Assembly (NCBI GenBank): GCA_963770895.1 | Contig: CAVYRF010000002.1 | Span: 1,760,001 to 1,824,000, forward strand | Length of the DNA stretch: 64,000 nt | Direction of reading: 5' to 3' | Source: an uncultured Acidobacteriota bacterium | GTDB lineage: Bacteria > Acidobacteriota > Thermoanaerobaculia > Multivoradales > UBA5704 | Part shown: positions 1-64,000 of the stretch, one piece after another | Layout of the letters: each line of letters starts with the position of its first letter | How positions within the stretch are numbered: position 1 is the stretch's first letter | Position numbers and translations under genes: made by a program | The notes under the pieces: generated by a model | Seen by the model: only the letters and a program-made list of their open reading frames with translations | The model's database searches: none | What the model was told of the DNA's origin: nothing

Positions 1-1460
1 CCTACGGCGAGCTGCGCCGGCGGGCGGGGGTCCTGGCGGACCGCTTGCGGGCTGCCGGGGTGGGGCCGGAGGTGCCGGTGGGTCTGCTGGCCGAGCGGTC
101 GGTGGGGATGGTGGTGGCGACGCTCGCGGTGCTGGAGGCGGGCGGCGCCTACGTGCCGCTCGACCCCGCGGCGCCGCCGGCGCGGCTGGCGCGGCTGCTG
201 GCCGAAGTGAGCCTGCCGGTGATCGTCGCCCAGCGGCACCTGGCCGCCGGCCTGCCCGCCGCCGCGGGGCTGGCAGGGATGGTGGTGGAGATCGACGGCG
301 GCGGCATCGCCAGCTCGCCGGCGGCTCCCCCGCGTCCACGTCCCGCCGCGCCGCCGGCTTGGTGCGAGCCGGACGGGCTGGCATACGTGATGTTCACGTC
401 GGGTTCGACGGGCACGCCCAAGGGCGTGGCGGTGACGCAGCGCGGCGTGGTGCGCCTGGTGCGGCGGACGTCGTACGCGCGGTTCGGTGCGGACCAGGTG
501 TTTTTGCAGCTGGCGCCGATCGGCTTCGACGCGGCGACGTTCGAGATCTGGGGAGCGCTGCTCAACGGCGGCCGTCTGGTGCTGGCGCCGCCGGGACCGG
601 TTTCGACGTCGGAGCTGGGGGAGCTGCTGGCGCGCCAGGGGGTGACGACGCTGTGGCTGACGGCGGGTCTGTTCCACGAGATGGTGGAGCAGAACCTGCC
701 AGGTCTGCGTCCTGTGCGTCAGCTGCTGGCGGGCGGCGACGCGCTGTCGCCGGCGCTGGTGTCACGGGCATTATCCGGCCTGCCGGGGACGCGGCTGATC
801 AACGGCTACGGTCCGACGGAAGGGACGACGTTCAGCTGCTGCGCCACGGTCACCGCCGAGTCGGTGGGAGCGACGGTGCCGATCGGGCGCCCGATCGCCG
901 GCACGGAGGTGGCGGTGGTGACGGGTGAGGACCAGCCGGCGGGGGTGGGTGTGCTGGGCGAGCTGGTGGTGGGCGGGCAGGGCCTGGCGCGGTGCTACTG
1001 GGGCCGTCCGGAGCTGACGGCGGAGCGATTCCGGCCGGACGCGGGCGGCCCTTCCGGCGGTCGGGTGTACCGGACGGGGGACCGGGTGCGTTGGCTTGCC
1101 GGCGGCAGCCTGGAGTTTGCCGGCCGTCTGGACCGGCAGGTGAAGATCCGCGGCTACCGCATCGAGCCGGGCGAGATCGAGGCGGCGCTGCGTTCGCACC
1201 CGCGGGTGACGCAGGCGGCGGTCGTGGTGCGCGCTGCCGGCGACGCTGCCGGCGCCGCTGCCGCTGCCGGTGACGGGGGCGTAGGCGGAGGCGACAAGCG
1301 GCTGGTGGCATACGTGGCGGGGGCGGAAGGGGACGACCTGCGCGGCTATCTGCAGGAGCGCCTGCCGGGCTACATGGTGCCGGCGGCGTGGGTCCGCCTG
1401 GCGTCGCTCCCCCTCACCGCCAACGGCAAGGTCGACCGCGCCGCCCTGCCCGAGCCCGCG
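1..1460 (+). repeat. Copy 1 of a near-identical ~1.4 kb Val A-domain duplication
   Basis: From base 1 (cctacggcgagctgcgccggcgg) the sequence matches 9979 onward almost base for base, with a few substitutions and two small in-frame indels. Confidence 0.93.
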
Positions 1461-7400: not shown

Positions 7401-10400
7401 TGGTCGGCGGTGTGCCGCGTCGGCGGCGACGGCGTGCACCTGGGTCGGCCGATCGCCGACACGGCGTTGCACGTGCTGGATCGCGACCGCCGGCCGGCGC
7501 CGTTCGGCGCGCCGGGCGAGCTGTGGATCGGCGGCGCCGGGCTGGCGCGCGGCTACCTGGGACGGCCCGAGCTGACGGCGGAGCGCTTCGCGCCCGACCC
7601 GTTCGCCGGCGCCGGCGCGCCGGGCGGGCGCCTGTACCGCACCGGCGACCTGGTGCGCCGCACCGCCGGCGGGCGCCTGGAGTTCCTGGGGCGCGTCGAT
7701 CACCAGGTCAAGCTGCGCGGCTTCCGCATCGAGCTGGGCGAGATCGAGGCGGTGCTGCTGAGCCACCCGGCGGTGGGTCAGGCGGTGGTGGTGCTGCGCG
7801 GCGATCAGGGAGGCCTCTCGGGCCGGCCGCGGTTGCCGAGCGGCGGCGGCGAGCCGTACCTGGCCGGCTACGTGGTGCCGGCGGTTCCCGCGTCGCCGCC
7901 GGGTCCCGCCGAGCTGCGCGCCTGGCTGGCGGAGCGCCTGCCCCGGCACCTGGTGCCGCAGGTGATGATGACGCTGGACGCCCTGCCGCTCACCCCCAAC
8001 GCCAAGGTCGACCGCCTGGCGCTGCCGGCTCCCCGGCGCGCCGCCGCGGGCCAGCCGGAGCCGCCGCGGGGGCCGCTCGAAGAGCTGCTGGCCGACGTCT
8101 GGGGCGAGCTTCTGGGGCTCGACCAGGTGGCGCGGGACGACGATTTCTTCGCCCTGGGCGGGCACTCGCTCCTGGCGGTGCGGGTGGTGGCGCGCCTGCG
8201 CCAGGGCCTGGGCGTCGAGCTGCCGGTGCGCGCCGTGTTCGAGGCTCCGGCGTTGCAGGCCCTGGCGCGGCGGGTCGAGGGCGCGCTGGGCGGCGTCGAC
8301 GTGGCGGCGGCGCCGCCGCTGGCGCCGCGGCCCTGCCTGGACGCGCCGCCGCCGCCGCTCTCCTTCGCGCAGGAGCGGCTGTGGTTCCTCGACCGGCTCG
8401 ATCCGGCGAGCGCCAGCTACAACGTGTCGGCGGCCGTGCGCCTGACCGGCGCGCTCGACCCGGCGGTGCTGCGCCGCTGCCTGGACCAGGTGGTGCGGCG
8501 GCACGAGGCGCTGCGCACCACCTTCGACCTGTGCGGCGAAGCGCCCTGCCAGGTGGTGCATCCGGCCGCGCCGGTGGCGTTTGCCCGGGTCGACCTGCCG
8601 GCGACGCCCCGTGCTGCCAACGCCGCCGACGCCGCCGCCGCTGCCGACGCCGCCGACGCCGCCGGCGAAGCGGAGGTCGCGCGCCTGCTCGCCGCGGCGG
8701 CCCGCCGGCCGTTCGACCTGCGGCGCGGGTCGCAAGATCCGGCGACTGCCGGCGGGCTACCGCGGCCTGCCGGCCTGCTGCGCGCGCTGGTGCTGCGCCG
8801 CACGGAGCGGGACTGGGTGCTGCTCCTGACGCTCCACCACATCGTCGCCGACGGCTGGTCGATGGGCGTTCTGGTCGGCGAGCTGGCGGCCCTCTACCGC
8901 GCCTATGCCGCGGGCGAGCCTTCGCCGCTCGCCGAGCTGCCGGTGCAGTACGCCGACTTCGCGGTGTGGCAGCGGACCGCCATGGCCGGCGAGCGCCTGG
9001 CCGCCGAGCTCGCCTTCTGGCGGCAGCAGCTGGCGGGAGCGCCGGTCCTGCTGCCGCTCCCGGCCGACCGGCCGCGGCCGGCGGTGCGCAGCCAGCGCGG
9101 CCGGCGGGTGGCGCTGCGCCTGGCGCCGGCGCAGCTTGCCGGAGTGCAGGCGATGGGCCGCCGCCATGGCGCGACGCTCTTCATGTCGCTGCTCGCGGCC
9201 TGGCAGCTGCTCCTGGGCCGCACCGGCGGCGCCGCCGACTTGCTGCTCGGCTCGCCGGTCGCCAACCGCCAGCGGCGCGAAACCGAAGGCATGATCGGCT
9301 TCTTCGCCAACACCCTGGTGCTGCGCGCCCGGTTGGCGGACGGCCCCTTCGCCGACCTCCTGGAGCAGACGCGCGCCACCGCGCTCGCGGCCTTCGCGCA
9401 CCAGGACCTGCCGTTCGAAAAGCTGGTGGCCGAGCTGGCCCCCGAGCGCAGCCTGACCGCCAACCCGCTGGTGCAGGCCGTCATCGCGATGCAGGACGTC
9501 CCGCTGCCTGACTGCGACCTGGGCGGCCTGCGCCTGGAGCCGCTGCCGCTGCCGGGAAACACCGCCAAGTTCGACCTCACCCTGATGCTGGCTCCCCTGG
9601 CTCCCCTGGCTCCCCTGGCGCCCCTGGCGCCCGACGGCGCCGGGCTCGCCGGCGCCCTGGAATACGCCTGCGACCTCTTCGACCACACCACCGCGGCGCG
9701 GCTGGCCGCCAGCTTCGTCACGCTGCTCACCGCGCTGGCCGGCGGTGCGGTGGCGCAAACCCCCATCGCCGAGCTGCCGCTGTTGTCGGCGGCCGAGCTG
9801 CAGCAGCTGCGGGAGTGGCGCGGCGAAGCCGTGCTTCCGGCGGCGCCGGAGGCGGGGCGCGAGACGATCGCGTCGCTGTTCGCGGCGCAGGCGGCGCGCA
9901 CGCCGGATGCGGTGGCGGTGACCGCGGCGGGCGGGGGCGATGTCGGCGATGTTGGCGATGTCCGCAGCGAGGCGGTGACCTACGGCGAGCTGCGCCGGCG
10001 GGCGGGGGCCCTGGCGGATCGGCTGCGGGCTGCCGGGGTGGGGCCGGAGGTGCCGGTGGGTCTGCTGGCCCAACGGTCGGTGGGGATGGTGGTGGCGACG
10101 CTCGCGGTGCTGGAGGCGGGCGGCGCCTACGTGCCGCTCGACCCCGCGGCGCCGCCGGCGCGGCTGGCGCGGCTGCTGGCCGAAGTGAGCCTGCCGGTGA
10201 TCGTCGCCCAGCGGCACCTGGCAGCCGGCCTGCCCGCCGCCGCGGGGATGGTGGTGGAGATCGACGCCGGCGGCCTGGCGGTTTCGCCGGCGGCTCCCCC
10301 GCGTCCACGCCCCGCCGCGCCGCCGGCTTGGTGCGAGCCGGACGGGCTGGCATACGTGATGTTCACGTCGGGTTCGACGGGTACGCCCAAGGGCGTGGCG

Positions 10401-13079: not shown

Positions 13080-14014
13080 CGGCCGCCGCCGCCCCCTTCG
13101 CGGAGGTGCTGGGCCTGCTGCGCGGCGGCGGCGGCCGCATGGAGCTGTTCCGCTACTCGGCCGGGGATCTGCACGAGCTGTACGGCGACGCCTGGGCCGC
13201 CGACGCGCTCTTCGTCCTGCGCAAGGTCGAGGCGTTCGCGCGCCTGTGCGGCGAGGACCTGGCGGCGGCGCTCGCCAGCTACGGCGAATGGATCGAGCGC
13301 GCCCTGGCGGAACGCGCCAGCCAACCCGCGCCGGGATCGCCGCAGGACGATCCGCGCTTCGGCATCCACTACCTGTACGCCCTGACGCTCAGCACGGCGC
13401 TCAACCGCTCCCGCTACGAGCTGCTCTGCGACTACCGCCAGGCCGTCGTGCGGCACCTGCCGGCGGGAACGCGCAGCCTGGAGATCGGCGCCGGCAACTG
13501 CATGGCCGCGGCGCTCGCCGGCGAACGCGGGCGGGTGAGCGCCTACGAGATGAACGAGCTGAGCCGCCTGTGGCCGGGCGTGCTCGAGCTTGGCGGCAGC
13601 GTCGACCTGCGCATCGAACCCTATCGCTTCGACGAGCCGGGCGCGTTTGGCTTCGTCACCATGATCGAGCTGCTGGAGCACGTCGCCGATCCCGCCGCCT
13701 ACCTGGCGGGGGCCGGCCGCGTGCTGGCGGATGGCGGCCTTGCCTATCTCACCTTCGCCGTCCGCATGCCGCAGTTCGATCACCTGGTCGATTTCGCCAC
13801 AGTGGAGGAGTGCCGTCAGCTGGTCGCGGACCACGGTTTCACGGTGCGCGACGAGCGGTGCCTGATCGACACCTATCAACCCTTCGCGGAGGCCGACCGC
13901 TGGCGTCTGGCGGCAGACCCGCGGCACGCCGTCATCTATTGCTGCCTGGCGCAAAAGGACCCGCGGCCCGAGCCGTCCCTGGCGCTGCGTGCATTCAATC
14001 TGGAGATCGACTGA
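13076..14014 (+). CDS. Class I SAM-dependent methyltransferase
   Basis: Motif I-like SLEIGAGNC, acidic post-strand VSAYEMNE, and IELLEHVADP...RVLADGGLAYL typical of class I methyltransferases. ATGA overlap with the upstream NRPS stop. Confidence 0.8.
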   Translation: MTAAAAPFAEVLGLLRGGGGRMELFRYSAGDLHELYGDAWAADALFVLRKVEAFARLCGEDLAAALASYGEWIERALAERASQPAPGSPQDDPRFGIHYLYALTLSTALNRSRYELLCDYRQAVVRHLPAGTRSLEIGAGNCMAAALAGERGRVSAYEMNELSRLWPGVLELGGSVDLRIEPYRFDEPGAFGFVTMIELLEHVADPAAYLAGAGRVLADGGLAYLTFAVRMPQFDHLVDFATVEECRQLVADHGFTVRDERCLIDTYQPFAEADRWRLAADPRHAVIYCCLAQKDPRPEPSLALRAFNLEID

Positions 14015-14016
14015 CC

Positions 14017-20587: not shown

Positions 20588-20591
<4 letters not shown>
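15942..20591 (+). CDS. NRPS C-I(interface, degenerate C)-A(Gln)-T
   Basis: GTG start in a GTGA overlap, N-terminal docking-like helix LTPEQRALLELRL. C core HHIVSDWW. Second C-like domain has LSPQQERLW but LPALCADA in place of HHxxxDG. Code DAWQFGLIDK (Gln type). GGHSL PCP. Confidence 0.93.
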
Positions 20592-30499
<9,908 letters not shown>

Positions 30500-30518
30500 G
30501 CGGGGGAGACGCGGCGCA

Positions 30519-42628
<12,110 letters not shown>

Positions 42629-42632
<4 letters not shown>

Positions 42633-51600: not shown

Positions 51601-54600
51601 TGCTGCGGCAGGCCTGCCGCCGGGCCGGCGTGGCGCCGGGCGACGTGCAATACGTCGAGGCGCACGGCACCGGCACGCCGCTCGGCGACGCCGTCGAGAT
51701 GACGGCCCTGGCGGCGGCGCTGGGCCAGGGCCGGTCGGCGGAGCGGCCGCTGATGGTGGGGTCGGTGAAGAGCAACTTCGGCCACGCCGAGGCGGCGGCG
51801 GGAGTGGCGAGCGTGATCAAGGTGGTGCTGGCGATGCGGCATCGCCTGCTGCCGCCCAGCCTGCACTTCCAGGCACCGTCGCCGCAGCTGGAGCTGGACC
51901 GCCTGCCGGTGCGGGTGCAGCACGTGCTCAGCCGCTGGCCCGCCGAGGAGCGGCCGCTGGTCGCCGGCGTCAGCGCCTTCGGCATCGGCGGCGCCAACGC
52001 CCACGTGGTGCTCGGGGAAGCTCCCCAGGAGGCCGCGGCGGCGTCCGGCGCGGCGGCGGCGCCCGCGGTGCGGCAGGCCGGGGCGGGCGGCGGCATCGCT
52101 CACCTGCTGCCGCTGTCGGCGCGCGATGCGCGGGCGCTGGCCCAACTGGCCGGGCGGACCGGGCAGTGGCTCGGCGGCGCCGGCGCCGCCGAGCCGCTTG
52201 ACGACCTCTGCTACACGGCGGCGGTGCGGCGCGATCATCACCCTCACCGCTGGGCGGCGTCCGGCCGCACCCACGCCGAGATGGCGGCGGCGCTGGCCGC
52301 TTTCGCCGCCACCGCTCAGGGTGGCCATGGCGGCCCTGGCGGCAATGGCGGCCAGGACGGTGCGGAACCCATGGCCGCGGCGCCGGTGATGAGCCGTCCG
52401 CGGCTGATCATGGTGTTTTCGGGGCAAGGTTCGCAGTGGGTGCGCATGGGCCAGGGCCTGGCCGAGCGCGAGCCGGTCTTCCGCGAAGCGCTGGCGCGGG
52501 TCGCCCGCCTGTTCCCCGCCCGCGACGGCCGCTCGCTGCTCGATCAGCTTGCGGCCGGCGCCGCGGACTCGCGATTGGACGCGCCGGAAGTGCTGCAGCC
52601 GGCGACCTTTGCCGTGCAGGTCGCCCTGTTCGAGCTGTGGCGCTCCTGGGGTCTCACCCCCGACGCGGTCGCCGGCCACAGCCTCGGCGAGGTGGCTGCC
52701 GCCTACGCGTGCGGCGCCCTGTGCATCGAAGATGCGGCGCGCGTGGTCGAGCACCGCTCGCGCCTCATGCAGTGGGCGATGGGGCCTGGCACCACGGCCC
52801 AGGTCCAGCTGCCGGAAGAGCGCGCCGCGGAGGTGCTGGCGGGGCACGCGGACGTGGAGCTCGCCGGCGCCAGCGGCCCGTCGTCCTTCGTCGTCTCGGG
52901 CGGCACGACGGCGGTCGCCCAGCTGCTGGCCGAGCTCGGCGGGCGGGGGGTGCGCTGCCGCGTGCTGCGGGTCGGACCGATCGCGCTCCACAGCCGCTTC
53001 ATGGACCCGTTGCAGGAGCCGCTCGCCGCGGCGCTGGGCAGCCTGCGGCCGGGACCGGCGCGCATCCCCTTCTTTTCGGCCGTCACCGGCGGCGCGCTGG
53101 CGGGGGAGCGGCTCGATGCCGGGTATTGGGTGCGCAACCTGCGCCAGCCGTTCCGCTTCCGGGCGGCGATGCGGGCGATGCTGGAGGCGCCGGAGGCGCC
53201 GGAGGACGGCGGCGGCGCGCCCGTCATCCTGCTCGAAGTCTCCCCCCACCCGCTGCTGGCGGCGCCGATGCAGGACAACCTGCGCCAGCTCGGCCGCCAG
53301 GGCCTGGTGCTGTCGTCGCTGCGCCGCGACGAGGACGAGCGCGGCGAGCTGCTCGCCGCGCTGGGCCGCGCCTACGCCGCCGGCCGCGACGTCGCCTGGC
53401 CGCGGCTCTATCCCGCGGGGCGGGTGCTGGACCTGCCCGGCTATCCGTGGCAACGCGAGCGGCACTGGTACCAGCAGCGGCGGACGGCATCGCCTGCCGG
53501 GAGCGACGGGCGCGACGCGGGTGGCGTCCGCGGCGCGGCGGTGGCGCCGGGGCCGGACGCGGATCAGGCGGCGGCGCTCTTCGACGTGGAATGGGTGCCG
53601 ATTGCCGCGGCGCCGGTGACCACGCCACCGGCGGCAGCGGCGGCTGGCCATCGCGGTGCCTGGGTGCTGGTCTGCGGCGGCCTGTCGGGCGACGCGCTGG
53701 CGGGGGCACTTGCGGCGGCGGGGGCCGCGGTGTGGCGGGTGGCGGCGGGGGAGCGGTACGCGGCGCCGGCGGCGGGCGGCCGGCAGTTCACCATCGACAT
53801 GGCCGCGCCGGCCGACTGGCGCCGCCTGCTCGCCGACCTGCCGGCGCCAGCCGGCCAGGGCGCCGGGGAAGGCCGCACCCGGCTGGTGCTGCTGTTCGGT
53901 GACGACATTCGGGCAGCAGCGGTGGGAGAGGCAGGAGCGGTGGGAACGGTTGGCGTGGCGGGAGCGGCGGGAGAGCGGGGGCCGATTGGCGCGCCGGCCG
54001 CGGTGCCTGAGACGGCGGATGCCGGCGCCGCCAGGGCGGCCACCGCCGCCCTGCTGTACGCCGTGCAAGCCGCGGCGCAGCTGGCGGCGCCGCCGCAGCT
54101 CTGGGTGGTGACGCGCGGCGCCCAGCCGCCCGGAGCGGTCGCCGCTCCGGACCAGGCGCTGCTGTGGGGCCTGGCGCGGGCGTTCGGCCAGCAGGAGCAC
54201 CCCGAGCTGTGGGGCGGCGTCGTCGACCTGGACCCGGCGGCGGAACCGGGCTCGCTCGACGAGGCGCGGCGGCTGCGCGGCCACGTCCTGGCGCCGGGCG
54301 GCGAGGATCAGGTATCGCTGCGCCAGGGGGAGCGCTACGCGCCGCGGCTGCGCCGCCGGCCCGCCGCCGGCACCGGCGGCGGCGCCAACCCACCGGCGGC
54401 GGGGCCGGCGCGTCCGCGCGCCGACGCGACGTACCTGGTCACCGGCGGGTTCGGCGCGCTCGGCCTGCGGGTGGCGCGCTGGCTGGTCGCGCGGGGTGCG
54501 CGCCGCCTGCTGCTGCTCGGCCGCCACGGCCTGCCGCCGCGGCGCACCTGGAGCGACGTCCCCGCCGCCGACCCTTACCGGCAGCGCATCGATGCCGTGC

Positions 54601-55562
54601 GGGCGCTGGAGTCGGCCGGCGCCAGCGTCCACCTGGCGGCGGCCGACGTCGCCGACGCGGCGGCGGTGGCGGGCCTGGTGGACACCTTCGAGCGCGAGGC
54701 CTGGCCGCCGGTGCGCGGCGTCGTCCACGCCGCCGGCGTGGTCGACGACCGGCTGCTGCTGCGCATGGACGGCGCCAGCCTGGATGCCGTGCTGCGCCCC
54801 AAGGTGCAAGGGGCGCTCGCCCTGCACGCGGCCTTCGCCGGCCGCCAGCTCGACTTCTTCGTGCTCTTCTCGTCGCTGTCGGCGCTGCTGCCGCCGCCGG
54901 GCCAGGGTGCCTACGCCGCCGCCAATGCCTTCCTGGACGCCCTGGCGCACCACCGGCGAGCGCTCGGCCTGCCCGGTCTCAGCATCGATTGGGGACCCTG
55001 GGCAGAGACCGGCATGGCGGCCGGCCGGCCGCTGCCGCACGCGGCCGGCGACGGCGGCGGGATCGCGCTGCTCGACCCCGCCGCCGCGCTGGCGGCGCTG
55101 GAGGTGGCGCTCGCGGGTGGCGCGGCGCAGGCCGTGGCGGCGGGAGACGTGGCGTGGCAGCGGCTGCAAGCGGGATTTTTCCCGCGCGGCGCGGCGCCGG
55201 CGCTGCTGGCCGACCTGCTGCCGGCGCCGGACGATCTGCCGCCCACCGCGCCCAAGGTTGCGCCGGCGGCGCTGGACTGCGTCGATGACGCGGCCTTCGA
55301 GCAACGGCTGCGGGAGCTGACCGCCGGCGTGCTGCAGCTGCCGATCGAGCGGCTCAATCCGCTCTCACCGTTGCGCGATCTCGGTTTCGACTCGATCATG
55401 GCGGTCGAGTTGCGCGCCAGCGTCGAACAGAGCCTCGGCAGCAGCCTGCCGATGCGCATCTTCCTGGACGCGCCGAGCGTGCGGCAGCTGGCCGGCCGTC
55501 TGGCGGAGCACCTGGCAATCGGTTCCACGGTCGGCGGGAACGGCCCGCGGATGGAGTCATGA
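48618..55562 (+). CDS. FAAL-ACP-KS-AT-KR-ACP type I PKS (lipid starter unit)
   Basis: FAAL MYTSGSTGTPRG, SWLPLFHDLGL, LRTGDLG, LPKTSSGK. ACP1 YGLTS. KS VDTACSGS / EAHGTGT / NFGHAE. AT GQGSQW, GHSLG, IALHS. KR TGGFGALG, HAAGVVDD, YAAAN. ACP2 LGFDSI. Confidence 0.94.
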   Translation: MTEAAGTVGTATDLCDLLRRQAARQPEGTACIFLADGDADSEQERLTYGELDAAARRIAAQLRRAAPQGGRALLLYPSGLEYVRAFFGCVYAGMAGVCAYPPPLSGGRRLLPRLRAIVADAQPAVALTNAGMLAHAQTFVRDEGVLAELPWLAPDGGPAAADDDDGGWSPPALAADDLAFLMYTSGSTGTPRGVMVSHGNVLHNLAAFPGFAARPLTASVSWLPLFHDLGLVFGLLHPLYQGAPAILLPPDAFVRRPLRWLSAISRFRASATFGPNFAYDLCARRIAPAERAGLDLSCLNLVLNGSEPVRHETLERFAAAFGSCGFRGAAFYPAFGLSEGTSDVSGNASFAPPLVCTLRGDQLDRHQVVAAAPGEPGARQVVGCGTVLPGQRVAIVDPATLAPCAADQVGEIWLGGPSVAQGYWARPAETAETFGARLAGSGDGPFLRTGDLGFLRGGELFVTGRLKDLVIVHGVNHYPQDIESSVERSHAALRPGCGIAFGCEADGGEGLVVVQEVEAAPAATLDEALGNIRQQLVEEHQVAPWAIVLIAAGTLPKTSSGKLQRRACREAFLAGELAPLAEWRAAPGAMPEGVSEETPDGAAGDPLEAWLAAAVARLAGIAPQAVDRTQPFARYGLTSVAITELVAELEALLGRRLPLTLLFEHPTVASLAGRLRGGLGAAALPEPASSASAANAVGAVGADGAAPGGREPIAIVGMSCRLPGAPDLRAYWELLRDGVDAVGPIPLERWDVDGLYDPNPAAAGKMNTRQGGFLSGLDRFDPLFFSISPAEAAHLDPRQRLVLELAWESLAHAGIPAASLRGSSTGVFIGTMTDDFFHLLLDDPARGDAYSGTGGANSLVANRVSYCLDLRGPSMAVDTACSGSLVAIHLACQSLWSGESSAALAGGVMVNLRPDGFLFFSRAGALAPDGRCKPFDARADGIGRAEGAGMLVLKPLSRARADGDRVLAVIRGSAINQDGMSNGLTAPQPRAQEALLRQACRRAGVAPGDVQYVEAHGTGTPLGDAVEMTALAAALGQGRSAERPLMVGSVKSNFGHAEAAAGVASVIKVVLAMRHRLLPPSLHFQAPSPQLELDRLPVRVQHVLSRWPAEERPLVAGVSAFGIGGANAHVVLGEAPQEAAAASGAAAAPAVRQAGAGGGIAHLLPLSARDARALAQLAGRTGQWLGGAGAAEPLDDLCYTAAVRRDHHPHRWAASGRTHAEMAAALAAFAATAQGGHGGPGGNGGQDGAEPMAAAPVMSRPRLIMVFSGQGSQWVRMGQGLAEREPVFREALARVARLFPARDGRSLLDQLAAGAADSRLDAPEVLQPATFAVQVALFELWRSWGLTPDAVAGHSLGEVAAAYACGALCIEDAARVVEHRSRLMQWAMGPGTTAQVQLPEERAAEVLAGHADVELAGASGPSSFVVSGGTTAVAQLLAELGGRGVRCRVLRVGPIALHSRFMDPLQEPLAAALGSLRPGPARIPFFSAVTGGALAGERLDAGYWVRNLRQPFRFRAAMRAMLEAPEAPEDGGGAPVILLEVSPHPLLAAPMQDNLRQLGRQGLVLSSLRRDEDERGELLAALGRAYAAGRDVAWPRLYPAGRVLDLPGYPWQRERHWYQQRRTASPAGSDGRDAGGVRGAAVAPGPDADQAAALFDVEWVPIAAAPVTTPPAAAAAGHRGAWVLVCGGLSGDALAGALAAAGAAVWRVAAGERYAAPAAGGRQFTIDMAAPADWRRLLADLPAPAGQGAGEGRTRLVLLFGDDIRAAAVGEAGAVGTVGVAGAAGERGPIGAPAAVPETADAGAARAATAALLYAVQAAAQLAAPPQLWVVTRGAQPPGAVAAPDQALLWGLARAFGQQEHPELWGGVVDLDPAAEPGSLDEARRLRGHVLAPGGEDQVSLRQGERYAPRLRRRPAAGTGGGANPPAAGPARPRADATYLVTGGFGALGLRVARWLVARGARRLLLLGRHGLPPRRTWSDVPAADPYRQRIDAVRALESAGASVHLAAADVADAAAVAGLVDTFEREAWPPVRGVVHAAGVVDDRLLLRMDGASLDAVLRPKVQGALALHAAFAGRQLDFFVLFSSLSALLPPPGQGAYAAANAFLDALAHHRRALGLPGLSIDWGPWAETGMAAGRPLPHAAGDGGGIALLDPAAALAALEVALAGGAAQAVAAGDVAWQRLQAGFFPRGAAPALLADLLPAPDDLPPTAPKVAPAALDCVDDAAFEQRLRELTAGVLQLPIERLNPLSPLRDLGFDSIMAVELRASVEQSLGSSLPMRIFLDAPSVRQLAGRLAEHLAIGSTVGGNGPRMES

Positions 55563-55567
55563 TCACT

Positions 55568-55592
55568 GCGGCGTGACGCAATTGCGCGCCGC
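55568..55592 (+). promoter_or_regulatory. Possible intergenic RNA hairpin
   Basis: gcggcg-tga-cgcaattgcg-cgccgc: outer 6-bp inverted repeat around a perfect 10-bp palindrome, just before the permease RBS (gggag). No U-tract, so not a classical terminator. Confidence 0.25.
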
Positions 55593-55607
55593 TCGGGAGA
55601 GACAGTC

Positions 55608-58037
55608 ATGGATGGCATTTTGCGCGACCTGCGAATCAGTTTTCGCACGCTTCTCCACAAGCCCAGCTTCCTCATCGCCGCGGTCCTGGTCCTGGCGTCG
55701 GGGATCGGCGCGACGGTGGCGATCTTCAGCTTCATCCACGCCTTCGTGCTCCACCCCCTGGACCTGGCCGGGGCCGACCGCATGGTGCAGCTGTGGGAAG
55801 CCTCCAAGGAGGAGGGCTGGGCCAAACGCGAGGTCGCGCCCGGCAACTTCCTCGACTGGAAATCGCAGAATCACGTCTTCGACCACCTGGCGTCGTACCA
55901 GCCCACCAGCTTCAACCTGGCGAGCCGCGGCGAGCCGGAGCGCCTGGCCGGGGCCAACGTCTCGGCCGATTTCTTTCGCGTCCTGGGCCTGACGCCCGCC
56001 AGCGGCCGCGACTTCCTGCCCAACGAGGACGCCGCCGGCGCGCCGCGGGTGGCGGTGATCAGCGACAACCTGTGGCGCCGCCACTTCGGCGCCGATCCGG
56101 CGATGCTCGGCAAGAGCTTCATGGTCAACGGCCAGAGCTGCGTGGTGGTGGGCGTGCTGCCGCCCTCCTTCCACCTGCCGCACCTGGGCCATGCCGACAT
56201 CTGGGTGCCGTTCGCCTTCGATGCCGGCAATGCCAACGATCGCGTCGGGCGCGGCCTGTACGTGCTGGGGCACCTGCGGCCGGGAGTCACCGCGCAGGGC
56301 GCCCAGGCGGACATGTCGTCGCTCGCGGCGCGCCTGGCGCAGCAGCATCCGCGGCCGGACGGGCCGATCGGCGTGCTGGTGATCCCGCTGGAGGTGGAGG
56401 TGGCGCAGTCCTACCGCCCGTCGCTGCTCATCCTGCTGATCGCCGCCGGGTGCCTGCTGCTGCTCGCCTGCGCCAACGTCGCCAACCTCCAGCTGGCGCG
56501 CACCTCGACGCGGGTGCATGAAATCTCGGTGCGCGTCGCGCTCGGCGTGACGCGCCCGCAGCTGATCCGCCAGCTGTTCCTGGAAAGCGTGCTGGTGGCG
56601 CTGCTCGGCGGCGTGCTGGCGCTCGTCGTGGCGCGCGCCTCGATCGCGCTCATGACCTACAAGCTGCCGCCGGACGTGCTGGTGTACGTGCCGCACTACG
56701 GCCGCGTGCCGATCGACGGCAGCGTGCTGCTGTTCAGCCTCGCCGCCGCGCTGGCGACGGCGGTCCTCTTCGGCCTGGTGCCCGCGGTGCGGGCGTCGCG
56801 GCCGCAGGTCGGCGCGCTGCTCAAGGGCGCCGGCCGCGCCTCGGCCGGCCGCCACGCCCGGCGCGGGCGGTCGCTGCTGATGGTGAGCGAGGTCGCCCTG
56901 GCGCTCACCCTGCTGGTGACCTCCGCCCTCATGCTCAAGAGCTTCGGCCGCCTGCAACGGGTCGATCCAGGCTTTCAGGCCGATCGCGTGCTGACCACCG
57001 AGCTCGAGCTGCCGCAGGCGACCTACGGTACGCCGGCGCTCGAAGCCCAGTTCTACCAGCGCGCGCTGGAGCGCGTCGAGCACCTGCCGGGCGTCGACAG
57101 CGCGGCGGTGGTCAACCACGTGCCGATGGGCGGCAGCAACTACAGCGGCACGGTCACCGTCGAAGGCTCTCCGGAAAAGGGCGACTGGCAGTTCAGCATG
57201 GTGCGCAGCTGCTCGCCCGACTACTTCCGGGTGCTGCGCATCCCGGTCGATCAGGGGCGCGCCTTCACCCCCCAGGACACCGCCGCCTCGCGCCGCGTGG
57301 TGATCGTCAACGAAGCGGTGGCCAGGCACTTCTGGCCCAACGGCAGCGCCCTTGGCAAGCGCCTCAAGCGCGGCCGGCTCGACAGCGACAATCCGTGGAT
57401 GGAAGTCGTCGGCGTCGTCGGCAACGTCAAGCAGTGGGCGCTCAACGACAACAGCACGGCGCAGATCTACCAGCCGATGCCGCAGTGGACGCCGCGGTCG
57501 GCGGCGATCGTGGTCCGCACCGTCTCCGACCGCCCCGCGGCGGTGGCGCAGAGCGTGCGCCGCGAAGTGCTGGCGGTCGATCCGCAGGAGCCCCTGGGAG
57601 AGTTCAAGACGATGCGGCAGCTGGTGAGCAATTCCCTGCTGCTGCAGGCGATGAGCGTCATCCTCATCGGCTTTTTCGGCACCATCGCCCTGGTCGTCGG
57701 CGCGATCGGCATCTTCAGCGTTGTCTACTACCTGACACTGCAGCGCACTCATGAGTTCGGCGTCCGCATGGCGCTGGGCGCTTCGCGCGGCAACGTGATT
57801 CAACTGGTCCTGTCGGGCGGTCTGCGGCTGGTCGCGATCGGCCTCGCGATCGGCGCGATCGCTGCCTTCGGCGCCGCCAGCGCGATGGGCGGCCTGCTGT
57901 ACGGGGTCAGCGCCGGCGACCTGTCGACCTACGCCGGGGCGGCGCTCTTCCTGGCCGTCGTGGCGGCGCTCGCGATCTATCTGCCGGCGCGCCAGGCAGG
58001 CAAGGTGTCGCCGGCGCTGTCCACGCGCTACGAATAA
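55608..58037 (+). CDS. ADOP-family duplicated permease (MacB/FtsX-like ABC permease)
   Basis: 809 aa. Starts MDGILRDLRISFRTL, contains LACANVANLQLAR...HEISVRVALG and a second QRTHEFGVRMALGA, i.e. two permease repeats each with a large extracytoplasmic loop. Confidence 0.88.
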   Translation: MDGILRDLRISFRTLLHKPSFLIAAVLVLASGIGATVAIFSFIHAFVLHPLDLAGADRMVQLWEASKEEGWAKREVAPGNFLDWKSQNHVFDHLASYQPTSFNLASRGEPERLAGANVSADFFRVLGLTPASGRDFLPNEDAAGAPRVAVISDNLWRRHFGADPAMLGKSFMVNGQSCVVVGVLPPSFHLPHLGHADIWVPFAFDAGNANDRVGRGLYVLGHLRPGVTAQGAQADMSSLAARLAQQHPRPDGPIGVLVIPLEVEVAQSYRPSLLILLIAAGCLLLLACANVANLQLARTSTRVHEISVRVALGVTRPQLIRQLFLESVLVALLGGVLALVVARASIALMTYKLPPDVLVYVPHYGRVPIDGSVLLFSLAAALATAVLFGLVPAVRASRPQVGALLKGAGRASAGRHARRGRSLLMVSEVALALTLLVTSALMLKSFGRLQRVDPGFQADRVLTTELELPQATYGTPALEAQFYQRALERVEHLPGVDSAAVVNHVPMGGSNYSGTVTVEGSPEKGDWQFSMVRSCSPDYFRVLRIPVDQGRAFTPQDTAASRRVVIVNEAVARHFWPNGSALGKRLKRGRLDSDNPWMEVVGVVGNVKQWALNDNSTAQIYQPMPQWTPRSAAIVVRTVSDRPAAVAQSVRREVLAVDPQEPLGEFKTMRQLVSNSLLLQAMSVILIGFFGTIALVVGAIGIFSVVYYLTLQRTHEFGVRMALGASRGNVIQLVLSGGLRLVAIGLAIGAIAAFGAASAMGGLLYGVSAGDLSTYAGAALFLAVVAALAIYLPARQAGKVSPALSTRYE

Positions 58038-58079
58038 CCGGCAGTGGAGCGTGCGAACGAAAGGTGAAAGGTGGTTCCG

Positions 58080-59126
58080 ATGGCTGACAACGAAGGCAAC
58101 GCCCCCGCGGCACCGCGGTTTCCGGGCACCATAAAGCGGCGGGCGGCGGCGATCACGCTCGACGACCTGGTCGAGATACGCCCGCTGTACGCGAACGGGG
58201 CGCTGCCGCTGTTCGTCGAGCCGCGCGTGCCGGGGCTGGAGCTGGCGGCGTGGACGCTCGCCAACCGGACGCTGGTCGAAGAGCACCTGCTGCGCCACGG
58301 CGGCATCCTGTTCCGCGGTTTCGCGGTCGATTCGCCGGCGCAGCTGGAGGCGTTCCTGCAAGCGCTGGCGGGCGGGGCGCTCGAATATCGCGAGCGCTCG
58401 TCGCCGCGCAGCCAGGTCGAAGGCAAGATCTACACCTCGACCGACTACCCACCAACCCATTCCATCTTCCTGCACAACGAAAACTCCTATCAAAACGTGT
58501 GGCCGCTCAAGATCGCCTTTTTCTGCCAGATCCCCGCGGCGCAGGGGGGCGCCACGCCCATCGCCGACTGCCGCCGCGTGTTTGCGCGCATGGACCCGGC
58601 GGTGCGCGACCGCTTCGTCGACAAGGGCTGGATGTACGTGCGGAACTTCGGCGACGGCCTGGGTCTGGATTGGAAAACCGTCTTTCAGACTCAGGATCGC
58701 AGCGTGGTCGAAGAGTATTGCAACAAGAGCGGCATCACCGTCGAATGGCGCCCGGACGGGCGCCTGCGCACGCGTTCGGTGCGGCCGGCGGTCACGCCGC
58801 ATCCCCGCACCGGCGAGCTGCTGTGGTTCAATCACGCCACCTTCTTCCACGTTTCGACGCTGGAACCCGACGTGCGGCAGGTGCTGCTCGACCAATATGA
58901 TCAGGACGAGCTGCCGACCAACACCTATTACGGCGACGGCAGTCCGATCGAACCCGCGACGCTCGACCACCTGCGCTCGCTCTACCACCAGGAAACCTTG
59001 CAATTCCCCTGGCGGCGGGGCGACGTGCTGCTGCTCGACAACATGATGACGGCGCATGGAAGGGCGCCTTTCGCCGGCGAGCGCAAGGTCCTGGTCGGCA
59101 TGGCGGAGCCGGTGACGCGTAAGTGA
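58080..59126 (+). CDS. TauD/TfdA-family Fe(II)/2-oxoglutarate dioxygenase (SyrP-like aminoacyl beta-hydroxylase)
   Basis: HGGILFRGF, IFLHNENSY (HxE), GGATPIAD, WFNHATFFH, DNMMTAHGR. ATG 58080 preferred over GTG 58071 because of the aaaggtg RBS. Confidence 0.92.
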   Translation: MADNEGNAPAAPRFPGTIKRRAAAITLDDLVEIRPLYANGALPLFVEPRVPGLELAAWTLANRTLVEEHLLRHGGILFRGFAVDSPAQLEAFLQALAGGALEYRERSSPRSQVEGKIYTSTDYPPTHSIFLHNENSYQNVWPLKIAFFCQIPAAQGGATPIADCRRVFARMDPAVRDRFVDKGWMYVRNFGDGLGLDWKTVFQTQDRSVVEEYCNKSGITVEWRPDGRLRTRSVRPAVTPHPRTGELLWFNHATFFHVSTLEPDVRQVLLDQYDQDELPTNTYYGDGSPIEPATLDHLRSLYHQETLQFPWRRGDVLLLDNMMTAHGRAPFAGERKVLVGMAEPVTRK

Positions 59127-59160
59127 TCGACCGCGGCGGCGAAACCAGGTAAGGCAGCCC

Positions 59161-60285
59161 ATGGACTTCGGCATTCTTTTCTTTTCCAGTCCGGCGCCTG
59201 CCGACGGGCCCGGCAAGTACCGGCTGCTGCTCGACGCGGCGCGCTTCGCCGATCGGCGCGGCTTCTCCGCGGTATGGACGCCCGAACGCCACTTCCACGA
59301 TTTCGGCGGTCTCTACCCCAGTCCCGCGGTGGTCAGCGCGGCGCTGGCGGTGACCACCGAGCGCGTCCAGATCCGCGCCGGCAGCCTGATCTCGCCGCTG
59401 CACCACGAGGTGCGCATCGCCGAAGAGTGGTCGATCGTCGACAACCTCTCGGGCGGCCGGGCGGCCATCTCCTTCGGCTCGGGCTGGAACGTCGACGACT
59501 TCATCTTCCACCCCGACCGCTACCCGCGCCGCCAGGCGGTGATGTACGAGCAGATCGAAGCGGTCCGCCGGCTGTGGCGCGGCGACACCCTGGTGCGGGA
59601 CAACACCTTCGGCAAGCCGGTCCAGATCACCCTGCGCCCCCGCCCGGTGCGGCGCGAGCTGCCGATCTGGATCACCTCCTCGGGCAACGCGGAAACCTTT
59701 GCCAGCGCCGGCACTCTGGGCGCCAACGTGCTCACCCACCTGATCGGCCAGGACGTGGCGACGCTGGCGGCAAAGATCGAGCGCTACCGCGCCGCGCACG
59801 CCGCGGCGGCGGACCGCCACGGCGCCGGCGGGCCGGGCACCGTCTCGCTCATGCTGCACACCTTTTTAGGCGCCGACCTGGCCGCCGTGCGGGCGCGGGT
59901 CCGCGGGCCGTTTCGCGAGTACCTGCGCTCCGCGGTGAGCCTCGAACAGCTCGCCGCGGCGGGCGGCGGCGCCGTCAGCGGCGGCCACAAGATCGAGCAG
60001 CACAGCATTCCGCCCGCGGTCATGGAGGAGCTGCTCGACATGACCTACGAGCGCTATGCCGATCACAACGCGCTTCTGGGCACCGTCGCCAGCTGCAAAC
60101 CGCTGATCGCGCGGCTGGCGGACATCGGCGTCGACGAGATCGCCTGCCTGATCGATTTCATCGACGACCCGGATGCGGTGCTGGCAGGCCTGGAGCACCT
60201 GGACGCCCTGCGCGCCGCCTGTGCGGCGCCCGCCGCGCCGGCCGCCGCCGATCCGCTGGCGGCCTTTCTGGAAACCCTCGCATGA
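59161..60285 (+). CDS. Luciferase-like flavin monooxygenase, MupA/Atu3671 natural-product type
   Basis: MDFGILFFS, VWTPERHFHDFGGLYPSP, AEEWSIVDNLSGGR, DEIACLIDF. Confidence 0.92.
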   Translation: MDFGILFFSSPAPADGPGKYRLLLDAARFADRRGFSAVWTPERHFHDFGGLYPSPAVVSAALAVTTERVQIRAGSLISPLHHEVRIAEEWSIVDNLSGGRAAISFGSGWNVDDFIFHPDRYPRRQAVMYEQIEAVRRLWRGDTLVRDNTFGKPVQITLRPRPVRRELPIWITSSGNAETFASAGTLGANVLTHLIGQDVATLAAKIERYRAAHAAAADRHGAGGPGTVSLMLHTFLGADLAAVRARVRGPFREYLRSAVSLEQLAAAGGGAVSGGHKIEQHSIPPAVMEELLDMTYERYADHNALLGTVASCKPLIARLADIGVDEIACLIDFIDDPDAVLAGLEHLDALRAACAAPAAPAAADPLAAFLETLA

Positions 60286-60316
60286 GGCGGCGGGGAGCCG
60301 CCGAGCGGCCAACCTG

Positions 60317-62245
60317 ATGTGCGGCATCGCCGGCACCTACGATCCGCGCGGCCGGCGCGCCGATGCGGCGGCGGTCGAGCGGATGGCCGGCGCGCTGGCG
60401 CACCGCGGCCCCGATTCCGCCGGCGCGTTTCAAGCCGACGGAGTGATGCTCGGTTTCCGCCGCTTGAGCATCATCGACCTGGCGGGCGGCGACCAGCCGC
60501 TGTTCAGCGAAGACGGCAACCTGGTCCTGGTCTGCAACGGTGAGATCTACGACTACCGCGAGCTGACGGCCGAGCTCACCGCCAAGGGCCACGTCTTTCG
60601 CACCCACAGCGACGTCGAAGTGCTGCTCCACCTGTACGAAGAGCACGGCGCCGACCTGCTTCACCGCATCAACGGCCAGTTCGCCTTCGCGCTCTACGAC
60701 CGGCGCGCGCGCAGCCTGCTTTTGGCGCGCGACCCCTGCGGCATCAATCCGCTCTTCTATACCGTCGTCGACGGCCAGCTGATCTTCGCCTCCGAGATCA
60801 AGGCGATCCTGGAGCACCCGCTGGCGCCGCGCCAGGTCGATCTCACCGGCCTGGACCAGGTCCTCACCTTTCCGGGCCTGGTGGCGCCCCGCACCTTCTT
60901 CAAAGGCATCCGCTGCCTGCCGGCGGGCCACCTGCTGCGCGCCGGCGCGGACGGGGTGGAAGAGCGCGAATATTGGGATCTCACCTATCCCGAGGCAGCG
61001 GACCATGAGCCCGCCGTTTCCGCGGCGCACGAACGAGACTACGTCGACGGCCTGCGCGAGCGGCTGCGCCAGGCCGTGCGCTACCGCCTGCAGGCCGACG
61101 TGCCGGTGGGCCTGTACCTGAGCGGCGGCCTCGACTCTTCGCTCATCGGCGCCCTGATCCATGAGATCTCCGCCACGCCGCGGCACTCCTTTTCGATCGC
61201 CTTCCCCGACCAGGAGATCTCCGAGGCCCGCCACCAACGCCTTATGGCCCAGGCGCTGGGCACGACGCACCACGAGATCTGGTTCGATTGGAGCGAGATC
61301 GCCAACCGCCTGACGCGCATGGTCCACCACTGCGAATGCCCGGTCAAGGAAGCCTTCGACACCTGCGCCCTGGCCCTCTCCGCGGCCGCGCGCCAGGCCG
61401 GCGTGCCGGTGGTGCTCGCCGGCCAGGGCGCCGACGAGCTCTTTGCCGGCTACATGGGCTATCGCTTCGACCAGGCCGGCCTGCGCGCCGCCCGCGCCCA
61501 GACCCTCGAAGGCGCGCTCGAAGACGAGATCCGCGAACGCCTCTGGGGTGAAGCCGGCCTGTTCTATGAAACGGATTTCCTGCCCCTGCGAGACCTCAAG
61601 GCCGCCCTGTACGCCGCCGATCTGGGCGCCAACCTGGCCGATTTCGACTGCACCAACCAACCCCTGCTCGACGGCAGCAAGCTGCGCGGGCGCCACTACG
61701 TCCACCAGCGCTCCTACCTGGACTTCAAGCTGCGCCTGGCCGAGCACCTGCTATCCGAGCACGGCGACCGCATGGTGCTCGCCAACTCGGTCGAGGGCCG
61801 CTATCCCTTCCTGGACCGTGAAGTCGTGCGCTTCGCCACCACCATCCCCCCCACCCTCAAGCTCAACGGCATGCAGGAAAAATACATCGTCAAGCAGGCC
61901 GCCCAAGGCCTGGTGCCGCGCGAAATCATCCAGCGCGAAAAGTTCGGCTTCCGCGCCCCAGGCACCCCCTACCTGCTGCAGCAGCGCATCGAATGGATCG
62001 AAGACCTCCTGTCCGCCGACCGCATCCGCGCCCAGGGCCTCTTCAACCCCGCCACCGTGGAAAACCTCAAGCACCGCTACCGCCAGCCCAGCTTCACCCT
62101 CAACCCACACCTCGAAACCGATCTCCTGATGATCGTCCTCACCTGCGGCCTCCTGGTCGACCAATTCAACCTCTCCACCCCCGCCCCCGCCCCCCGACCC
62201 GCCCTGACCGCCGCCGCCGCCGCGTTCGCCGCCGACGACCTCTAG
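60317..62245 (+). CDS. asnB: Asparagine synthase (glutamine-hydrolysing)-like amidotransferase
   Basis: N-terminal MCGIAG (Ntn Cys) at ATG 60317, HRGPD, RRLSIID, NGEIY, LSGGLDSS, GQGADELFAGY, VEGRYPFLD. Confidence 0.92.
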   Translation: MCGIAGTYDPRGRRADAAAVERMAGALAHRGPDSAGAFQADGVMLGFRRLSIIDLAGGDQPLFSEDGNLVLVCNGEIYDYRELTAELTAKGHVFRTHSDVEVLLHLYEEHGADLLHRINGQFAFALYDRRARSLLLARDPCGINPLFYTVVDGQLIFASEIKAILEHPLAPRQVDLTGLDQVLTFPGLVAPRTFFKGIRCLPAGHLLRAGADGVEEREYWDLTYPEAADHEPAVSAAHERDYVDGLRERLRQAVRYRLQADVPVGLYLSGGLDSSLIGALIHEISATPRHSFSIAFPDQEISEARHQRLMAQALGTTHHEIWFDWSEIANRLTRMVHHCECPVKEAFDTCALALSAAARQAGVPVVLAGQGADELFAGYMGYRFDQAGLRAARAQTLEGALEDEIRERLWGEAGLFYETDFLPLRDLKAALYAADLGANLADFDCTNQPLLDGSKLRGRHYVHQRSYLDFKLRLAEHLLSEHGDRMVLANSVEGRYPFLDREVVRFATTIPPTLKLNGMQEKYIVKQAAQGLVPREIIQREKFGFRAPGTPYLLQQRIEWIEDLLSADRIRAQGLFNPATVENLKHRYRQPSFTLNPHLETDLLMIVLTCGLLVDQFNLSTPAPAPRPALTAAAAAFAADDL

Positions 62246-63999: not shown

Positions 64000-64000
64000 C

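Follow-up and report, generated by a model that had tools for sequence, protein, structure and literature searches.

Lipopeptide synthetases of the iturin/puwainaphycin/ralsolamycin class are primed by a fatty acyl-AMP ligase (FAAL) and build beta-amino fatty acids with a unit of ketosynthase (KS), acyltransferase (AT), acyl carrier protein (ACP) and aminotransferase (AMT) domains that is fused to nonribosomal peptide synthetase (NRPS) modules and stands at the head of the line. In the accessible part of its report, the puwainaphycin synthetase of Cylindrospermum (PuwC/D/B/E-H) is described with a FAAL, a polyketide synthase (PKS) module and a KS-AT-ACP-aminotransferase-monooxygenase unit followed by condensation (C), adenylation (A) and thiolation (T) domains, and the KS-AT-ACP-AmT-Ox part of PuwE yields a 3-amino-2-hydroxy acyl unit (PMC4219810). 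The excerpt available for ralsolamycin likewise gives RmyA/RmyB a FAAL-KS-aminotransferase with a luciferase-like monooxygenase (LLM), then NRPS modules, and places a cyclic peptide transporter in the cluster (PMC4989320). Here we analyse a hybrid FAAL/PKS/NRPS cluster in a stretch of 64,000 nucleotides (the window) from an uncultured Acidobacteriota bacterium of the lineage Thermoanaerobaculia; Multivoradales; UBA5704 (GenBank GCA_963770895.1, contig CAVYRF010000002.1, positions 1,760,001 to 1,824,000 of the forward strand). Judged from their domains and order, its 13 genes probably form one collinear line that would make a lipopeptide of 13 amino acids and one polyketide-extended residue. 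A FAAL and a KS-AT-ACP-AMT unit fused to NRPS modules are both present, whereas in gene order the AMT is not found at the head of the line: it lies in gene E, where 11 amino-acid modules precede it.

This position separates the locus from its described counterparts. In puwainaphycin biosynthesis the AMT unit works on the fatty acyl starter, and the cyanobacterial homologues are about 43% identical to ours. In RmyA/RmyB and in MycA of the mycosubtilin synthetase the AMT lies at the line start, in the same protein as the FAAL, and those proteins lack three domains of our cluster that are discussed below, namely the interface domain, the second C domain before the diaminobutyrate (Dab) module (hereafter Cs') and the modAA-type C domain. 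The nearest named proteins are Ralstonia hybrids (44-45% identity), which from their names and sizes are presumably RmyA, followed by proteins of Burkholderia stagnalis (41-44%) and Calothrix (43%). Overlap with occidiofungin-type clusters consists of the TauD gene and the cyclic peptide transporter, the AMT-LLM hybrids of B. stagnalis not being confirmed as occidiofungin genes; occidiofungin is an octapeptide, hence very different in module count and order. With Pseudomonas-type cyclic lipopeptide synthetases such as that of syringomycin the cluster shares a SyrD-type exporter (gene G) but, unlike them, its gene A has no N-terminal starter C domain in the ranking of PDB matches. Among 41 related genomes an orthologue was found only in G010, a member of the same family (69-72% identity), and our searches found no characterised nonribosomal peptide from this NRPS-rich acidobacterial family.

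The assembly line and its predicted product

The cluster occupies 70.7 kb on the + strand (window -8433 to 62245), with all reading frames open, and starts 8.4 kb upstream of window position 1. Pfam and an in-house domain map, built with seeds taken from the window itself and with gene models derived from junction sequences, assign 11 NRPS A domains to the window, every one of them on the + strand (four in gene A, the first of them cut by the window start, three in gene D and one each in C1, C2, E and F), plus one FAAL. The window further holds two KS-AT modules, one thioesterase (TE), an aminotransferase, an in-line LLM, and separate methyltransferase, TauD, LLM and AsnB genes. Six junctions (A/B, C1/C2, C2/D, E/F, F/G and G/H) are 4-nt start/stop overlaps and the remaining six are gaps of 2 to 45 nt, so that it is fair to speak of one coupled operon. 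A preliminary description of the window had proposed exactly such an operon, with 11 A domains, two PKS modules and a single TE, and had listed the methyltransferase, TauD, two LLMs and AsnB besides the aminotransferase, all of which we recovered. Its 62-kb extent held for the coupling but fell short of the full line: the upstream genes it had asked for turned out to be the remainder of gene A, which from window -8433 adds two full modules and the C domain and A-domain start of a third, and brings the A domains of the full line to 13. The open reading frame scanned as 13989..20591 comprises two genes, 14017..15945 (A-T, in another frame) and 15942..20591.

In the order that we favour, gene H (48618..55562; FAAL-ACP-KS-AT-KR-ACP by Pfam) would serve lipid loading and extension, activating a fatty acid, extending it by C2 and reducing it to a 3-hydroxyacyl-ACP. 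The N-terminus of its product has a PKS FAAL domain (524 bits), SafB and FadD23/32/28 as best PDB matches, an ACP follows, and in the ketoreductase (KR) the LDD motif occurs as VDD, a motif type that we take to mark 3R-hydroxy products. The N-terminal C domain of gene A (-8433, equivalent to L001:11567, to 13079; an NRPS of 7170 aa with six C-A-T modules and a terminal C) would join the acyl group to residue 1, after which gene A would add Ala, an Ala-like residue, Val, alpha-aminoadipate (Aad), Gly and Val. The terminal C domain would then transfer the chain to residue 7, loaded on the free-standing A-T protein of gene C1 (14017..15945; 642 aa), the acceptor half of module 7. Gene B (13076..14014) encodes a SAM-dependent methyltransferase of 312 aa (Pfam Methyltransf_23, 36 bits; no NCBIfam match and only weak, UbiG-type PDB matches) and lies between the two halves of module 7, and would probably modify residue 7, although this target is a guess. 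Gene C2 (15942..20591; C, interface domain, A with a Gln code, T) would add Gln, on which the TauD/TfdA Fe(II)/2-oxoglutarate dioxygenase of gene J (58080..59126; Pfam 174 bits), docked on the interface domain, would act while the residue is carrier-bound. Gene D (20588..30499; C-A-T, C-A(Thr)-T, CmodAA-A(Ala-like)-T) would contribute an unassigned residue, Thr and an Ala-like residue, with Thr turned into dehydrobutyrine (Dhb) by the modAA-type C domain.

Gene E (30519..42632; 4037 aa) is a PKS-NRPS hybrid with the order KS-AT-ACP-AMT-LLM-C-Cs'-A(Dab)-T-E, the last domain being an epimerisation domain. Its KS would take the peptidyl chain from the last T domain of gene D and extend it with malonate, the AMT would convert the beta-keto group to an amine and the LLM would hydroxylate the alpha carbon, giving a 3,4-diamino-2-hydroxy acid. 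Gene E would then add Dab as D-Dab and gene F (42629..46915; DCL-type C-A(Ser)-T-TE) would add Ser, and the TE, the sole release domain of the line, would release the product, probably as a ring. Export is assigned tentatively to gene G (46912..48621; SyrD-type cyclic peptide export ABC transporter, TIGR01194 467 bits against a cut-off of 286) and gene I (55608..58037; ADOP-family duplicated permease of MacB/FtsX type, TIGR03434 874 bits, cut-off 622). Genes K and L would be further tailoring enzymes: K (59161..60285) is a stand-alone MupA/Atu3671-type LLM (TIGR04020, 456 bits) and a paralogue of the in-line LLM of gene E (46-48% identity), and L (60317..62245) is a glutamine-hydrolysing asparagine synthase homologue that starts with MCGIAG (TIGR01536 467 bits, cut-off 267) and, the line having no Asn code, may amidate an acidic side chain. 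In this order the 13 canonical C domains and the KS of gene E are each used exactly once for 13 residues, one polyketide unit and one lipid.

The internal aminotransferase module and the Dab-linked condensation domain

The in-line class-III AMT and MupA/Atu3671-type FMN LLM domains of gene E (34149..36503, + strand; Pfam, TIGR04020 457 bits against a cut-off of 244) follow a KS with an intact Cys-His-His triad and an AT with the motifs GHSLG and HAFH, the latter of which we take to be a malonyl signature. By gene order, 11 amino-acid modules precede this unit. Literature searches turned up no characterised pathway in which an internal aminotransferase module works on a peptide, in line with the preliminary description, which had matched the module order and the internal position of the aminotransferase to no pathway; the layout is nevertheless not unique to the cluster and recurs in the NRPS-rich acidobacterial family. 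An internal KS-AT-AMT order is also found in a second cluster of the source genome (L078) and in two relatives (L077 of G018 and L060 of G001), and in L077 and L078 it lies behind at least three NRPS modules. The passage from a T domain to the KS is a boundary between adjacent, co-directional genes in four of four loci (the window, the second cluster, G001 and G010), and in the G010 orthologue the Cmod-A-T end of gene D is 66-73% identical to ours and is followed by a stop codon and then by a KS 85% identical to that of gene E. The KS of gene E groups with KSs that follow NRPS A-T domains (clade support 0.28-0.50), and the KS of gene H falls in a separate clade with support 1.0. The second cluster itself (L078, G000:C2:3925001-3945000, with the line in 3925001-3961000) consists of three C-A-T modules, then KS-AT-ACP-AMT, then C-A-T-DCL, and a Gly-like code marks the residue that is extended; past the end of L078 there are a TE-like match, at a distance of about 7 kb, and, at about 15 kb, a TauD match that shares 71% identity with gene J.

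Two C-like domains had been overlooked in the preliminary description, the interface domain of gene C2 (17451..18665) and Cs' (37998..39338), both on the + strand. Cs' carries the motif NHLVADARG and stands directly before the Dab A domain of gene E, at residues 2494-2940, behind an elongating C domain at residues 2041-2479. Its PDB ranking is led by RzmA-Cs (81 bits), CDA-C1 (70) and VibH (53), then EntF, and its NCBIfam match is the N-terminal C domain of MxcG (87 bits); we take all five to accept acyl or aryl donors in trans. A look-up in the ESM Atlas returned 'Condensation domain' only. Cs' is 64% identical to its G010 orthologue, compared with 69-77% for the neighbouring catalytic domains and 42-48% for the linkers, and the motif N-H-L-[VI]-A-D-A is kept in three orthologues, so that the second His and the Asp are retained while the first His and the Gly are lost. 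Among the best 120 homologues of the AMT-LLM-C region, all 13 that bear a Cs', taken as a domain whose best score is with Cs', have the Dab code DIWE[LIV]TADDK behind it, against one of 89 AMT/LLM-C-A junctions without Cs', counts that are not independent because the Cs' homologues are kin. The HHxxxD motif is intact in eight of these 13. Two of 80 metagenome loci hold three further Cs' domains, two of them with an intact motif; a Dab code stands behind two of the three and a different code behind the third. None of the three remaining Dab-code A domains of the source genome has a close Cs'.

Trees of C-type domains separate Cs' from the interface domains and, in a tree of 83 domains that contained no starter references, place it on a long branch beside DCL and modAA domains with support 0.94. 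Taken together, these sequence features suggest that Cs' most likely acylates one amine of Dab, likely the second, and the lipid of gene H could be the donor. A precedent for the arrangement is available: in the accessible part of the icosalide report, module 3 of IcoA (LCL-CI-A-PCP) places a chain-initiating C domain immediately behind an elongating LCL domain and ahead of a single A-T pair, and this second C domain acylates the residue on the carrier (PMC6553374). The two cases differ in the residue, which is Dab here and Ser in IcoA, and in the motif, NHxxxDA against an intact one. Outside the AMT-LLM context, a Cs'-type domain was also seen behind a DCL-type C domain on a metagenome contig (L090, 23837-25171), where the next A domain has the code DIESIATIDK.

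Several observations weigh against a collinear line primed at its N-terminus. Gene H lies after E-F-G rather than before gene A, and the first C domain of gene A ranks in the PDB with the elongation C domains Txo2 and Txo1, no starter C domain being present among its 43 PDB matches at E <= 1e-10. This domain pairs with its G010 counterpart with support 1.0; its place beside C domains that accept ACP-bound donors has a support of only 0.29. The weakly supported clade of the gene E KS may reflect kinship rather than function, and five of the 13 substrates (A2, A7, A9, A11 and partly A1) are uncertain. In addition, in all 12 Kitasatospora/Streptomyces loci with a long enough flank a FAAL...KR unit stands directly before KS-AT-AMT-LLM and the C-A-T that follows, which corresponds to the order H then E. 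Such an order would be of the iturin/puwainaphycin type: gene H would feed gene E to give a 3-amino-2,5-dihydroxy fatty acid starter, and the peptide of genes A to D would be made separately or joined later. RmyA and PuwE, as far as the accessible texts describe them, also have the AMT-Ox unit right after the lipid (PMC4989320, PMC4219810). However, a line of H, E and F would stop after two residues and would leave the 11 modules of genes A to D with no release domain and no acceptor for the last T domain of gene D, and it is for this reason that we prefer the collinear order. The conserved adjacency of D and E in G010, the internal AMT modules of L077 and L078 and the separate clades of the two KSs argue in the same direction, and we regard a starter built by H and E as improbable.

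The points raised by gene H and by the first C domain of gene A would also suit a second initiation of the icosalide kind, in which Cs' N-acylates carrier-bound Dab with the 3-hydroxyacyl group of gene H, so that a lipid, or a second lipid, sits on Dab instead of or besides the N-terminus. Gene H adjoins E-F-G, the first C domain of gene A is not starter-like in its PDB ranking, and Cs' itself ranks first with the lipo-initiating RzmA-Cs and CDA-C1, keeps the second His and the Asp in all three orthologues, is better conserved between genera than the linkers and is nearly always followed by a Dab code, as it is in two of the three metagenome cases; the IcoA module supplies the precedent. Against this stand the Asn in place of the first His and the DA in place of DG, the long branch beside DCL and modAA domains, and the kinship among the Cs' homologues; moreover, the N-terminal C domain of gene A would have a donor only if the lipid were used a second time or an acyl-CoA took its place. 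Overall, we consider second initiation at Dab unlikely. We regard entry of the lipid at the N-terminus as somewhat more likely than not, and its entry on Dab as unlikely.

A further possibility is that the cluster or its product has already been described and was missed, since novelty was judged by proxies, that is by genome and protein scans and by literature mostly without subscription journals, and not by MIBiG or BiG-FAM. A scan at one genome per species returned 37 loci, none above 51% identity. In a large protein collection the relatives above 60% were limited to NCBI record P0001, which is the G010 orthologue of gene E and is labelled 'Acidobacteriota bacterium', and one metagenome protein (P0002, 67%) on a 72-kb contig; the relatives at 67-72% are Acidobacteriota records only. 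With P0002 as query, a metagenome scan gave a best locus of 59% and did not return the contig of P0002 itself. In the accessible part of a report on Ca. Angelobacter, an acidobacterial genus rich in biosynthetic gene clusters, none of the clusters is linked to MIBiG (PMC9723581), and our literature searches found no description of the present cluster. An earlier description therefore seems very improbable. Judged by these scans and the literature, the cluster is real and apparently an undescribed variant of the FAAL/PKS/NRPS lipopeptide lines; it is still one orphan cluster among many in its family.

More speculatively, the cluster may combine two features for which there is no characterised example and which it would share with relatives across uncultured Acidobacteriota: a PKS module with AMT and monooxygenase whose substrate is a peptidyl-aminoacyl chain and which places a 3,4-diamino-2-hydroxy acid in the interior of the peptide, and a distinct subtype of acyl-accepting C domain, found almost only before Dab-type A domains, that acylates the side-chain amine of carrier-bound Dab. 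We put this forward tentatively and hold it, as a whole, to be rather doubtful. If true, one line would have a second, internal point of lipidation or branching, for which the FAAL-PKS lipid may be the donor. The locus thereby raises questions of enzymology: whether an AMT/monooxygenase PKS module can handle a peptidyl substrate, what role the Dab-linked tandem C domains play, and whether interface domains bring TauD enzymes to Gln outside siderophore pathways. Intact, 71 kb long and on a near-complete genome, the cluster could serve as a starting point for heterologous expression or synthetic studies.

Specificity codes and tailoring domains

To read the ten specificity positions, all 13 A domains were aligned with MAFFT and anchored at conserved motifs, and NCBIfam and PDB rankings were used as support; the NCBIfam scan covered 12 of the domains and left out A3, which spans the window edge. 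The assignments of codes to amino acids presumably hold as in the published codes from which most were drawn, a literature search on the codes having returned no result. In gene A, A1 (DLFNNALTYK) points to Ala, A2 (DVFCNAITYK) to an Ala-like residue, A3 and A6 (both DAFWLGGTFK) to Val, A4 (DPRHFVLRAK) to Aad and A5 (DILQLGLIWK) to Gly. The Aad call for A4 agrees with its best family, TIGR03443 (Lys2-type alpha-aminoadipate reductase; 442 bits, against 366 for the generic A-domain model), a result that A4 alone among the 12 gave. A8 of gene C2 (DAWQFGLIDK) reads as Gln, A10 of gene D (DFWNIGMVHK) as Thr, A11 of gene D (DLFNCALTHK) as Ala-like, A12 of gene E (DIWEMTADDK) as Dab and A13 of gene F (DVWHISLVDK) as Ser. 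The top match of A12 is the last A domain of a PvdL-type model (498 bits), which we assume loads Dab.

No substrate was assigned to A7 of gene C1 (DARHLALMVK) or to A9 of gene D (22103-23641; CVQHMAQVIK). The code of A7 is unlike the Asp- and Asn-type codes of relatives (DLTKVGHVGK, DLTKVGEVGK), and 'DAR...' codes like that of A7 form a small class with no assigned substrate in the source genome. A residue order had been predicted for the window before, and ten of its 11 calls (Val, Aad, Gly, Val, hydroxy-Gln, X, Dhb, Ala with a C2-extended diamino acid, D-Dab and Ser) agree with our reading; the remaining one, a modified Asp at A7, does not. A9 has Cys rather than Asp at position 1 of its code and may activate something other than an ordinary alpha-amino acid. 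In the genome as a whole, nine A domains have 'DPR...' or 'DAR...' codes, of an Aad-like or unassigned class, and A9 has the only Cys-at-position-1 code among 211 A domains.

Directly after the Thr module of gene D lies a C domain of the modAA type (27242..28564, + strand; NHxxxDG), whose PDB ranking is headed by McyA (8jbr, 290.7 bits) and the CmodAA of AmbE (7r9x, 182 bits), with all others at or below 120 bits. These dehydrating domains are its best matches by a wide margin, and it appears to be an ordinary member of their kind, from which we noted no difference. We read it as dehydrating Thr to Dhb, because a Thr code stands upstream and the McyA/AmbE-like C domain follows directly. The epimerisation domain of gene E (41175..42629, + strand; TIGR01720 105 bits, cut-off 74) comes after the Dab module and supports D-Dab as the predicted residue. 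The C domain of gene F begins with a YPLSPMQEGMLFH-type motif, a start that we take to be typical of DCL domains.

The interface (I) domain of gene C2 is a catalytically dead C-like domain in which PALCAD replaces HHxxxDG, with both His lost, and it stands directly before the Gln-code A domain in the order C-I-A-T. Interface domains of siderophore beta-hydroxylase systems were reportedly defined by Reitz et al. in 2019, from whom the definition used here partly comes. In its accessible part, a 2023 paper lists 'I (interface)' as a bacterial C subtype. We read the PALCAD domain as a hydroxylase interface domain because the same domain type sits directly behind TauD in relatives, and propose it as the docking site for the TauD protein of gene J. 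In five relatives, many homologues of gene J form part of NRPS genes with the order C-TauD-X-A-T, and for at least ten of the 23 TauD matches there an X/I-type match begins within about 130 nt. A first tree, of 51 C-type domains, from which matches with less than 70% coverage or with stop codons were dropped, contains a clade of 12 in which a PALCAD-like motif predominates and the histidine pair is absent throughout; seven of these lie directly behind TauD, four behind a C domain (that of gene C2 included) and one at a contig start, shares that are biased because the 14 TauD/I loci were picked from adjacent matches. All 12 members, as far as their context is visible, stand directly upstream of an A domain, and the second tree, built from 83 domains, recovers the PALCAD clade with support 1.0. 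Behind I domains the A codes resemble those for Asp, Asn, His, Glu/Gln and Ser, and another C-I-A module, in G024, has a code identical to that of A8 (DAWQFGLIDK).

Residues H132, E134, H326 and R335 of gene J are invariant across 16 homologues, and we infer that gene J beta-hydroxylates carrier-bound Gln to 3-hydroxy-Gln. A complex prediction for gene J and the I domain, both supplied as alignments and run with no controls, scored 0.31 against a mark of 0.32. The arrangement resembles TauD/interface siderophore systems (beta-hydroxy-Asp or -His), where a dead C-like domain immediately precedes the A domain for the residue to be hydroxylated and the hydroxylase may be fused or stand-alone, but the partner A domain of gene C2 has a Gln code, not an Asp or His code. 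A siderophore as the product was considered and rejected: Gln is the only residue predicted to be hydroxylated in this way, and the flanking ORFs checked showed no TonB-type or other uptake gene. A tandem C-TauD-TauD-I-A-T, followed by a Glu-like code, occurs in one NRPS gene of G024 (L057, G024:C23:110000-126000, at 6755-8864 on the - strand).

Genomic surroundings

The source genome is near-complete, with 8.16 Mb in three contigs and a GC content of 70.8%, against about 75% in the cluster, and is rich in NRPS genes, with about 249 C-domain, 211 A-domain and 25 KS matches. The 3' border of the cluster is marked by a convergent ORF (62242..63969, - strand; 575 aa) with an HTH_31 motif at residues 450-500; it lies in a lower-GC region, and this long ORF is perhaps overcalled, the real gene perhaps being much shorter. 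Beyond it follow a DinB gene, a hybrid kinase, a PMT_2 glycosyltransferase and an ABC gene. No pathway genes were seen among the flanking ORFs checked. Scans for promoters and terminators (55000-64000 and upstream of gene A) gave site counts not above those of shuffles, and no RNA run was listed that covers window 34000-43900, where one DNA-type run holds 0.37 of the words.

Gene A is preceded by a caspase-like gene, a TPR-S gene and an opposite-strand methyltransferase. The caspase-family gene (Peptidase_C14; L001:7576-9924, - strand, corresponding to window -12424..-10076) adjoins the MAP3K_TRAF_bd / TPR-S gene, and the two look like a signalling or defence pair. The source genome encodes 29 full-length paralogues of the ADOP permease. 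An actinomycete origin was considered and rejected in view of these paralogues and of the Acidobacteriota label on the G010 orthologue, and Ca. Angelobacter was rejected because its GC content is about 55%, against 70.8% in the source genome. Within gene A, the C-A regions of modules 3 and 6 (window -1326..1245 and 8691..11214) are 85% identical in DNA over 2.6 kb and share the same Val code, an internal module duplication.

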